IMG/VR virus record: IMGVR_UViG_2537562191_000053 | Source of the DNA: a virus | Lineage: Duplodnaviria; Heunggongvirae; Uroviricota; Caudoviricetes | DNA length: 20,837 nt | Direction: 5' to 3' (one strand) | In this document: positions 15,007 to 15,154 of the stretch, one piece after another | Layout: each line of letters begins with the position of its first letter | Numbering within the stretch: position 1 is the first letter of the stretch | Translations under genes and position numbers: made by a program | The notes under the pieces: generated by a model | What the model saw: the letters and a program-made list of their open reading frames with translations, nothing else | Told to the model about the DNA's origin: nothing | Database searches by the model: none

Positions 15007-15154
15007 TGAATTTTGTGATGCGGTGAATGCGGCTGAGCGCACGCGGAACAGTTAAAACCAAAAACAGTGTTATGGGTGGATTCTCTGTATCCGGCGTTAA
15101 TTGTTAACTGGTTAACGTCACCTGGAGGCACCAGGCACCGCATCACAAAATTCA
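15007..15154. repeat. 19-bp perfect inverted repeat pair (TGAATTTTGTGATGCGGTG) flanking a 110-bp spacer
   Basis: Arms at about 15007-15025 and 15136-15154 read directly; the spacer holds a nested palindrome CGTTAA-ttgttaactgg-TTAACG. The right arm ends about 18 nt before ATG 15172. Confidence 0.6.

Follow-up and report, generated by a model that had tools for sequence, protein, structure and literature searches.

An inverted repeat in the dicF-dicB spacer as the probable RNase III stem of a pseudoknotted STnc100/PasD-type RNA domain

What role does a long perfect inverted repeat play when it lies immediately upstream of the gene for a cell-division inhibitor? The window analyzed here, a 20,837-nucleotide stretch of Caudoviricetes DNA, carries two 19-nt arms at 15007-15025 (TGAATTTTGTGATGCGGTG) and 15136-15154 that are 100% complementary across a 110-nt gap, and our repeat search reproduces exactly the positions, arm length and 110-bp spacer given in an earlier sequence-only reading. 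That reading offered several roles for the repeat: in RNA, a long-range stem closing a structured domain just ahead of the ribosome binding site (RBS) and serving as attenuator, processing site or sRNA; in DNA, a binding-site pair or a miniature inverted-repeat element (MITE). The results described below indicate that the arms probably form a helix, P1, that is the RNase III stem of the dicF-dicB spacer and that closes a pseudoknotted domain of the STnc100/PasD type.

The dicBF operon and the fold of its spacer

The inverted repeat is far above chance. It is the longest perfect inverted repeat in the window for loops of up to 200 nt, and the 19 bp observed compare with a maximum of 15 bp among 200 shuffled sequences, in which the longest repeat mostly reached 10-12 bp. 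The search for further copies of the 19-mer that had been proposed as a MITE test, run over the window with up to three mismatches allowed, finds no site besides the two arms (0.03 expected by chance).

The window belongs to a Qin-like lambdoid prophage and holds its dicBF operon, which DicA represses; this gives an identity to what had been labeled an early-left operon. The gene order is ydfC, DicF sRNA, repeat and dicB, and the repeat fills the dicF-dicB spacer. The start of DicF is given as 14945/6, the Rfam match beginning at 14946 and the K-12 gene (1649382-1649434) mapping by alignment to 14945-14997; the left arm starts nine bases 3′ of the Rfam match. An E. coli genome with 100% identity over 14600-15400 carries annotated ydfC (14470-14688 in the window) and dicB (15172-15360), as well as a DUF1482/ydfD gene, with an exonuclease and an excisionase downstream. 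The right arm ends at 15154, leaving 17 nt before the dicB ATG at 15172, in line with the distance of about 18 nt counted earlier. A scan detects no plus-strand promoter-like site in the stretch from ydfC to dicB; beyond the right arm it gives no terminator-like site either, and there is no U-run 3′ of 15154 (CAAAAUUCAUUGUUGAGG). In K-12, a 1,608-nt ydfABC-dicFB-ydfD transcript has been reported (2023 operon study).

The earlier statement that 14690-15170 contains no convincing CDS stands, but the DicF gene inside this interval had been overlooked. Two open reading frames, 15067-15360 (+, in frame with dicB) and 14973-15578 (-), were considered as coding and rejected: they are unannotated in identical genomes, and a coding reading conflicts with the variable length of P3 and with the compensatory changes described below. 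The sequence-only reading recognized neither DicF nor dicB, nor the 35-year literature of the locus.

Folded as plus-strand RNA, 15000-15185 has a minimum free energy (MFE) of -70.3 kcal/mol (z = -6.3), and in the MFE structure a 26-bp closing helix surrounds a multi-branch junction with four hairpins. This is the fold that had been suggested as a check, and its outcome, together with the covariation, agrees with the proposed long-range stem: the arms pair, and the structured domain that they close lies immediately before the dicB RBS. P1 starts from the 19 perfect pairs and continues outward with G15006.U15155 and A15005-U15156, a bulged G15157 and five more pairs, for a length of 19 perfect bp, 21 contiguous bp with the two flanking pairs, or up to 26 bp with the bulge. 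The palindrome CGTTAA...TTAACG around GTTAAC, described earlier and present at 15095-15117, is nested in the spacer and corresponds to the P4 stem plus one strand of the pseudoknot. The features of the region, all on the plus strand, are as follows.

14945-14997 (+): DicF sRNA, 53-nt form, ending in its own intrinsic terminator hairpin (RF00039, 76.7 bits at 14946-14997; K-12 annotation).
14998-15006 (+): terminator U-tract (14998-15002) followed by AAAG, predicted from the MFE structure to pair with 15155-15164 in read-through RNA as the outer 5′ extension of P1.
15007-15025 (+): left arm, 5′ strand of P1 (repeat search, fold); the 3′ end of the 72-nt DicF would map to about 15016-15020, reckoned from the DicF 5′ end.
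15026-15028 (+): junction J1/2, AAU, within the near-invariant GGUGAAU of the family (alignments).
15029-15044 (+): hairpin P2, 5 bp (15029-15033 with 15039-15040 and 15042-15044), with a bulged A15041 and the conserved loop UGNGC (covariation).
15049-15055 (+): pseudoknot 5′ strand CAGUUAA, partner of 15104-15110 (complementarity to its own loop).
15056-15092 (+): P3, whose length and sequence are hypervariable across the family, with GGGUGG common to embedded members (family alignments).
15093-15119 (+): hairpin P4 (15093-15100 with 15112-15119), whose 11-nt loop holds the pseudoknot 3′ strand UUAACUG at 15104-15110 (MFE, covariation).
15121-15135 (+): hairpin P5, CCUGG-AGGCA-CCAGG, with no linker to the 3′ strand of P1 (alignment to the STnc100 model, covariation).
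15136-15154 (+): right arm, 3′ strand of P1, with a predicted partner RNase III cut at 15146/15147 (from the 2-nt 3′ overhang rule).
15155-15164 (+): outer 3′ extension of P1 with G15157 bulged, a weak, G.U-rich pairing predicted in the MFE structure, overlapping the dicB Shine-Dalgarno sequence GAGGA (15160-15164).
15172-15360 (+): dicB, a 62-aa cell-division inhibitor (Pfam PF05358, 127 bits; dicB annotation in the identical E. coli locus).

Family membership, covariation and the pseudoknot

In a permissive scan the full Rfam STnc100 model (RF02076, positions 1-206) aligns to 14995-15204 with 40.1 bits (E = 2.7e-7), which is below the gathering threshold of 47 bits, and the element is absent from a scan at that threshold. 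The alignment places the arms on the long-range closing helix of the model and recovers all of its hairpins, and the core architecture of the family is present in full, with closing helix, P2, P4 and a P5 abutting the closing helix. A 3′ terminator of its own is absent from the element, the corresponding part of the model (about 170-206) aligning poorly to the RBS and start of dicB. The minus strand of the window also carries a genuine STnc100 copy, at 1448-1656 (175 bits).

A second covariance model, R1, describes the core and was seeded with 24 free-standing members that include no dicB-, kilR- or P1-type sequence. It matches the element at 15018-15143 over its full length (positions 1-123) with 68.2 bits (E = 3e-13), and it also recovers the copies of K-12 Qin, K-12 Rac, P7, D6 and two Klebsiella phages, with further matches to copies in Citrobacter, Lelliottia, Scandinavium and Pseudescherichia. 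Among 100 genome loci, 80 are significant and all but one of these are from Enterobacterales, with about 25 genera represented; the lone exception, a 388-nt contig assigned to Prolixibacteraceae, is probably contamination. Motif matches in Streptomyces, Planctomycetes and other groups fail the model and were dismissed as chance. Because two covariance models match, we conclude that the element is homologous to STnc100/PasD: the enclosed domain of about 125 nt is a divergent, operon-embedded member of that family, and the sRNA option of the earlier reading gains ground in that the domain falls in an sRNA family.

STnc100 and PasD are reported as related, Hfq-dependent prophage sRNAs. Hfq-dependent accumulation and target base-pairing are reported for PasD in EPEC only, and the free-standing relatives are described as Hfq-dependent sRNAs with many RIL-seq partners. 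The element shares with them the closing helix, the J1/2 sequence GAAU, the P2 loop UGNGC, a variable P3, P4, and a P5 of the form CCNGG-AGGCA-CCNGG that abuts P1. Unlike STnc100, it lies inside an mRNA between an sRNA terminator and an open reading frame, lacks a promoter or terminator of its own, and has P1 extended to 20-22 bp or more; its P2 stem is swapped, with GCGG/CGC where STnc100 has CCCC/GGGG.

The helices and the pseudoknot all covary. For this analysis the P5 motif CACCNGGAGGCACCNGGCA was scanned over IMG/VR and one genome per species, giving more than 200 loci that were trimmed and clustered at 85% identity to 39 representatives, and these were aligned with MAFFT, which is naive to structure. 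On this alignment 95.7% of the cells in helices pair; displacing the partners by 1-3 columns lowers this to 37-45%. Both-side changes affect 13 of 23 pairs, and none of 500 shuffles matches the observed covariation score. P2 is 98.5% paired, with three of its five pairs changing on both sides (GC to CG and the reverse). Both-side changes also occur in three of five P4 pairs, and a conserved G.U pair in P4, found in 23 of the 39 sequences, is a sign of the RNA strand because the opposite strand would have a C.A mismatch. The invariance of P5 is partly a matter of ascertainment, the collection having been made with a P5 motif; its middle pair, both positions of which were left free in the search pattern, is always complementary, with 9 sequences having U-A and 30 having G-C. 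For the pseudoknot, 90% of the 39 representatives carry a complement of at least 6 bp to the P4 loop in their own linker after P2, a proportion that drops to 28% with the linkers of other members and 23% with shuffled linkers, and 29 distinct pseudoknot sequences occur among the 39. This interaction is absent from the Rfam STnc100 consensus and from the Pas preprint.

Assignment of the element to the plus strand follows from the family-wide G.U pairs, orientation and context. Polymorphism of the arms within E. coli was tried for the same purpose and gives no proof, the 9 distinct arm pairs containing six G.U and six A.C combinations. A tRNA-like reading, prompted by the abutment of P5 on P1 and by the tRNAs near the P7 and D6 copies and at 1766-1998 in the window, was also set aside: ARAGORN reports only the two tRNAs at 1766-1998 in the window, and Rfam gives no tRNA-clan match in 14690-15250 at E up to 10.

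Long closing helices and RNase III processing

The length of P1 is bimodal in the family. Copies with their own promoter and/or terminator have 5-12 bp, and these include a sigma-70 promoter set to start transcription at P1, a terminator, or both; embedded copies upstream of an open reading frame have 20-30 bp and neither signal. Long closing helices are thus specific to the embedded copies. When anchored at the junction and aligned free of gaps, eleven distinct helices of at least 19 bp fall into four sequence lineages, with example 5′ arm strands GUGAAUUUUGUGAUGCGGUG, CAGACCUUGCAAUGCAGUG, GCAGGUUUUAAGGUGUGGUG and GCAGGCUUUAAGGUGCGGUG. More than one pair type occurs at 12 of 19 arm positions, most by changes on both sides, and in every embedded lineage the ungapped helix is 20-22 bp long, or two helical turns. 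Helices of at least 19 bp were picked as paired, and the evidence therefore lies in the divergence of the lineages and in the gap between the length classes and not in the percentage paired. A lack of covariation or conservation of the arms in related prophages had been named beforehand as part of the outcome that would speak against the proposal; across genera the arms vary while their pairing is kept.

RNase III stems are familiar from ribosomal and phage transcripts (the 16S and 23S precursors, the lambda N leader, T7 early RNAs), in which RNase III frees the enclosed or neighboring RNA by cutting a roughly two-turn helix that distant flanks have formed. Such a stem calls for a regular helix of some two turns, or at least about 20 bp, and P1 has this form by the perfect, contiguous and bulged counts given above. 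The likeness is one of mechanism only, with no sequence homology; here, in contrast, the stem encloses a domain of about 125 nt from an sRNA family, and its neighbors are an sRNA and a toxin mRNA.

That the repeat serves the dicF-dicB spacer as its RNase III stem has been published before. Reviews citing Faubladier 1990 state that RNase III makes a 72-nt DicF from full-length dicBF mRNA (PMC5069750, PMC9438474), and the dicF-dicB intergenic region is counted among RNase III substrates (PMC2777011); the locus is the same as the one studied here. Seventy-two nucleotides from 14945 end at 15016, or at up to about 15020 should a few terminator U's be counted in the 53-nt form, and the 3′ end of the RNase III-made species would thus lie inside the left arm at about 15016-15020, with an uncertainty of a few nucleotides, going by the 53 and 72 nt quoted in the reviews. 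Since the 72-nt DicF ends in the left arm, the processing role of the stem can be considered already known at the level of these sources, and of the options listed in the sequence-only reading the processing site is the one that they substantiate. The three papers, through which the 1990 work is represented here, describe DicF products only; the partner arm 110 nt downstream, the enclosed domain, its family tie and the modules in Rac and other phages go unmentioned there.

Further data bear on cleavage at this locus. K-12 position 1649470 (about 15033 in the window) is covered only in an rnc mutant, with 26 versus 0 reads (PMC5371410, Table S1); the table is a long, noisy, low-coverage list and 26 reads are few, and these reads lend weak support to processing. 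The 2023 operon study deals only with the RNase III cut that creates the 5′ end of a 190-nt DicF species and is silent on a 3′ event. For the Rac copy, the site at 1418510 (kilR-sieB) of Gordon 2017 was considered as evidence of cleavage and rejected, as it lies 8 nt upstream of the KilS start and outside the element.

The module recurs in other genomes. Of 5,426 complete E. coli genomes, 4,642 (86%) carry the element, with a median of 2 copies and up to 9, and among the matches listed nearly all E. coli copies have no annotated feature under them. The K-12 Qin copy is 98.8% identical to the window over the element, and its arms differ from those of the window only by two C-to-U changes that give G.U wobbles. 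In Rac-type prophages the element lies between sieB and kilR, immediately 3′ of a DicF-like terminator, and in MG1655 Rac this terminator ends the annotated 98-nt sRNA KilS. The layouts are parallel, KilS-terminator-element-kilR in Rac and DicF-terminator-element-dicB in Qin: in each, an sRNA (Hfq-bound in the case of KilS) ends at a DicF-like terminator and is followed by the element, 80-88% identical between the two and with a long P1, and then by a small division inhibitor gene (PMC8175672, which describes KilS only). The same pairing of the terminator U-tract is predicted in Rac. The Rac leader differs in that the downstream gene encodes Kil, which is unrelated to DicB, and in a 1-nt bulge in P1.

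P7 and D6 have a short-stem copy in the ban operon, between tRNA genes and tciA/terB, and in a Klebsiella phage the element precedes small open reading frames and then a lambda-Kil-like gene. Counting all the early-left genes that it precedes, kilR and tciA among them, the module spans at least six genera. The genes downstream of family copies encode DicB, Kil (phrog_294), a Rha/Ash regulator, TerB and unknown small proteins, and an exclusive tie to cell-division inhibitors was rejected on account of the last three. The gene family varies; what stays constant is the location in the early-left operon, where the element precedes whichever gene comes first after a terminator or hairpin.

These observations can be combined in a model. 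When transcription reads through the DicF terminator into dicB, the two arms would pair as one helix, P1, and RNase III would make staggered cuts in both strands, at about 15016/17 and 15146/47. RNase III cleavage leaves 2-nt 3′ overhangs, and the position of the partner cut, 15146/15147, is deduced from this rule. The cut in the left arm would trim DicF to its 72-nt form, and the cut in the right arm would create a new 5′ end for the dicB-ydfD mRNA about 25 nt before the AUG. The double cut would also free a 130-nt STnc100-like RNA (15017-15146) that keeps a 9-bp P1, a length within the range of the free-standing relatives. The long helix of embedded copies may in this way stand in for a promoter and a terminator in setting the ends of the RNA. 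We hold with moderate confidence that RNase III frees the core RNA as a third product of the operon; without the terminator U-tail of its Hfq-dependent relatives, the excised RNA may simply be degraded. Unmasking of the RBS by the cut was examined by partition-function folding and rejected, the energy to open the Shine-Dalgarno sequence and AUG being 8.2 kcal/mol in read-through RNA (14945-15235) and 10.2 kcal/mol in the predicted cleaved mRNA (15147-15235).

Alternative explanations and the meaning of the module

The processing role leaves room for different views of what the core is for. Helix and core might act only locally in the dicB or kilR leader, setting the 5′ end, stability or translation of a toxic downstream gene once RNase III has cut, with the excised core as a by-product. 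We consider this rather unlikely, even though embedded copies always lie 5-40 nt before the first open reading frame after a terminator or hairpin of the early-left operon, the outer extension of P1 overlaps the dicB Shine-Dalgarno sequence, and the excised RNA would lack an Hfq-type 3′ tail. The core, the pseudoknot and the near-invariant junction and loop bases are kept in free-standing copies that have no downstream open reading frame, and the retention of the core in copies with their own promoter and terminator argues that it has a function of its own. The folding comparison (8.2 versus 10.2 kcal/mol) gives no gain in RBS accessibility, and the downstream genes are unrelated to one another (DicB, Kil, Rha/Ash, TerB, unknowns). 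A different cis role would be that of a sensor, in which the core, by binding a small molecule or a protein of host or phage, gates RNase III access or the translation of the host-killing gene. The near-invariant unpaired GGUGAAU, the P2 loop UGNGC with its bulged A, the C before P4 and the covarying pseudoknot fit such a role, this much structure exceeds the usual need of a base-pairing sRNA, and the presence of two kinds of downstream element, terminators and RBSs, recalls riboswitch classes. A sensor is nevertheless improbable: no result points to a ligand or protein, the free-standing relatives act as Hfq-dependent sRNAs with their many RIL-seq partners, MFE and partition-function folding find no mutually exclusive fold that links the core to the RBS or terminator, and the neighboring genes of family members share no metabolic theme.

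The readings that dispense with an enclosed RNA domain fare worse. As DNA, the repeat could be a MITE, or a binding-site pair or cruciform for a protein, and its perfect 19-bp terminal inverted repeats, its body of about 110 bp and the many copies per E. coli genome have the look of a MITE. The window holds no second copy of an arm, and the flanks (...TTTTTAAAG and TTGTTGAGG...) show no target-site duplication; copy number follows that of lambdoid prophages, and each copy examined keeps its synteny and orientation relative to the operon. In other genera the arms are swapped for unrelated sequence with pairing and the 20-22 bp length kept, the internal helices and pseudoknot covary, and the G.U pairs are valid on the plus strand only. 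Both DNA-level proposals of the sequence-only reading, the mobile element and the binding-site pair, are for these reasons very improbable. Its attenuator option, in which the long stem would be an intrinsic terminator or pause hairpin before dicB, has hardly more to recommend it than a stable stem immediately upstream of a toxic gene and the genuine terminator of DicF just before it; the right arm is not followed by a U-run, the scan shows nothing terminator-like there, a multi-branched loop of 110 nt is unlike a terminator, and the reported K-12 transcript runs through dicB into ydfD. We regard it as scarcely credible. A relation to the put antiterminator of HK022 was considered as well, both being cis-encoded structured RNAs in early operons of lambdoid phages lacking N, and was rejected for mismatch in architecture and position: put is about 70 nt long, with two stem-loops in a V shape, and is promoter-proximal, upstream of the terminators that it suppresses (PMC9378689), and it has neither a closing helix nor a pseudoknot, whereas the element follows a terminator.

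The preferred reading remains that of an RNase III stem closing an STnc100/PasD-type domain, and several of its parts appear to be undescribed in the literature consulted. Apparently new are that the stem closes a covarying, pseudoknotted member of STnc100/PasD, that the same RNase III-type module stands before kilR, tciA and other early-left genes across Enterobacterales, that long closing helices are limited to embedded copies, and that the element is near-universal in E. coli yet unannotated. In the STnc100/PasD literature we found no mention of the pseudoknot or of an embedded form. There is also an outside chance that the core is a distinct RNA class, binding a ligand or protein or acting as a catalyst beyond the role of an sRNA scaffold, which phages use in two formats. 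If so, one format would be free-standing (STnc100/PasD, including some tandem arrays) and the other RNase III-excisable, before dicB, kilR and tciA, and the timing of host-takeover genes would be tied to a signal read by RNA.

DicF and DicB make up one of the oldest studied sRNA-toxin loci, and their spacer has been treated as a plain UTR with an RNase III site. In the reading proposed here that site is the helix that closes a conserved structured RNA, which makes the enclosed RNA a candidate third product of the dicBF operon and, in Rac, a candidate second product of the KilS-kilR leader. The element has its relatives among the Hfq-bound STnc100/PasD sRNAs found in pathogenic E. coli, and a pseudoknot and an embedded subfamily are added to that family, which should improve the models used for annotation. 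The family as a whole suggests a rule in which one RNA module is freed either by a promoter and a terminator or by an RNase III stem.

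The Rac copy and the embedded P3 motif

In K-12 the Rac copy of the element adjoins the annotated sRNA KilS, both on the minus strand of the extracted Rac locus (L132):

564-690, minus: Rac copy of the element
706-803, minus: kilS, annotated sRNA

The 3' end of K-12 KilS is a DicF-like terminator lying directly 5' of the element, and the kilR 5' UTR therefore comprises KilS followed by the element; the published KilS paper makes no mention of the element in this leader. Embedded copies from E. coli and Klebsiella (loci L002, L008, L010 and L093) have in common a GGGUGG(A) motif in P3, at about 15075-15081 in the window, which may be a seed or contact site. 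Apart from this motif, P3 of the embedded copies is hypervariable.

The dicF precursor and the flanking IS copies

In the precursor, a 15-nt inverted repeat with 93% complementarity (14536-14550 and 14939-14953) might provide another long-range pairing, the second one. The left arm lies inside ydfC and the right arm at the DicF 5' end, a reported RNase E cut site. Two-piece alignments reveal an insertion or deletion of about 84 nt between the window and K-12-type loci upstream of 14825. For the 190-nt DicF precursor an RNase III site has been published at the 5' end; because of this difference, that site may not be conserved in the window prophage. The insertion or deletion falls in the ydfC-dicF spacer (about 14690-14945).

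Two IS3-family (IS629/IS1203-like) copies, inverted relative to each other and each with an ALIL frameshift pseudoknot, bracket hok/sok, relBE, ydfC, dicF, the element and dicB:

6267-7480, plus: IS3-family copy
7552-7727: sok
15641-17053: exonuclease ORF, 470 aa
17093-18306, minus: IS3-family copy

The exonuclease is 822 aa in strain E2863 as against 470 aa here, and looks truncated by the second IS copy. Such an inverted pair could permit inversion or mobilisation of the bracketed segment.

Family members in other replicons and in the window

Tandem arrays of free-standing members, repeating about every 253 nt, are present at loci L037, L057, L114, L207 and L210: arrays in phage contigs have three to five copies, the one in Superficieibacter has three, and a Pantoea plasmid has at least six in a 1-kb stretch. 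In P1-like phages, a copy with a short stem (P7, L005, 2000-2117; D6, L006, 2000-2122) lies in the C1-controlled ban operon with tRNA genes on one side and tciA/terB on the other; D6 has a second, weaker match at 385-482 (35 bits). Copies of the element are also present in the 254-kb 'Aeromonas phage AP1' record (MT713136; 98.8% identical) and in an 'Actinobacillus phage' record (87% identical). A module of E. coli prophages would not be expected in such hosts, and the explanation may be contamination or a chimeric assembly.

The window itself contains a genuine STnc100:

1387-1446, plus: anti-sRNA AgvB
1448-1656, minus: STnc100, 175 bits
1766-1842, minus: tRNA-Arg
1923-1998, minus: tRNA-Met

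The two tRNA genes lie immediately upstream on the same strand, and AgvB adjoins the STnc100 terminator on the opposite strand. With this STnc100 the window therefore holds two members of one RNA family, one free-standing and one embedded.
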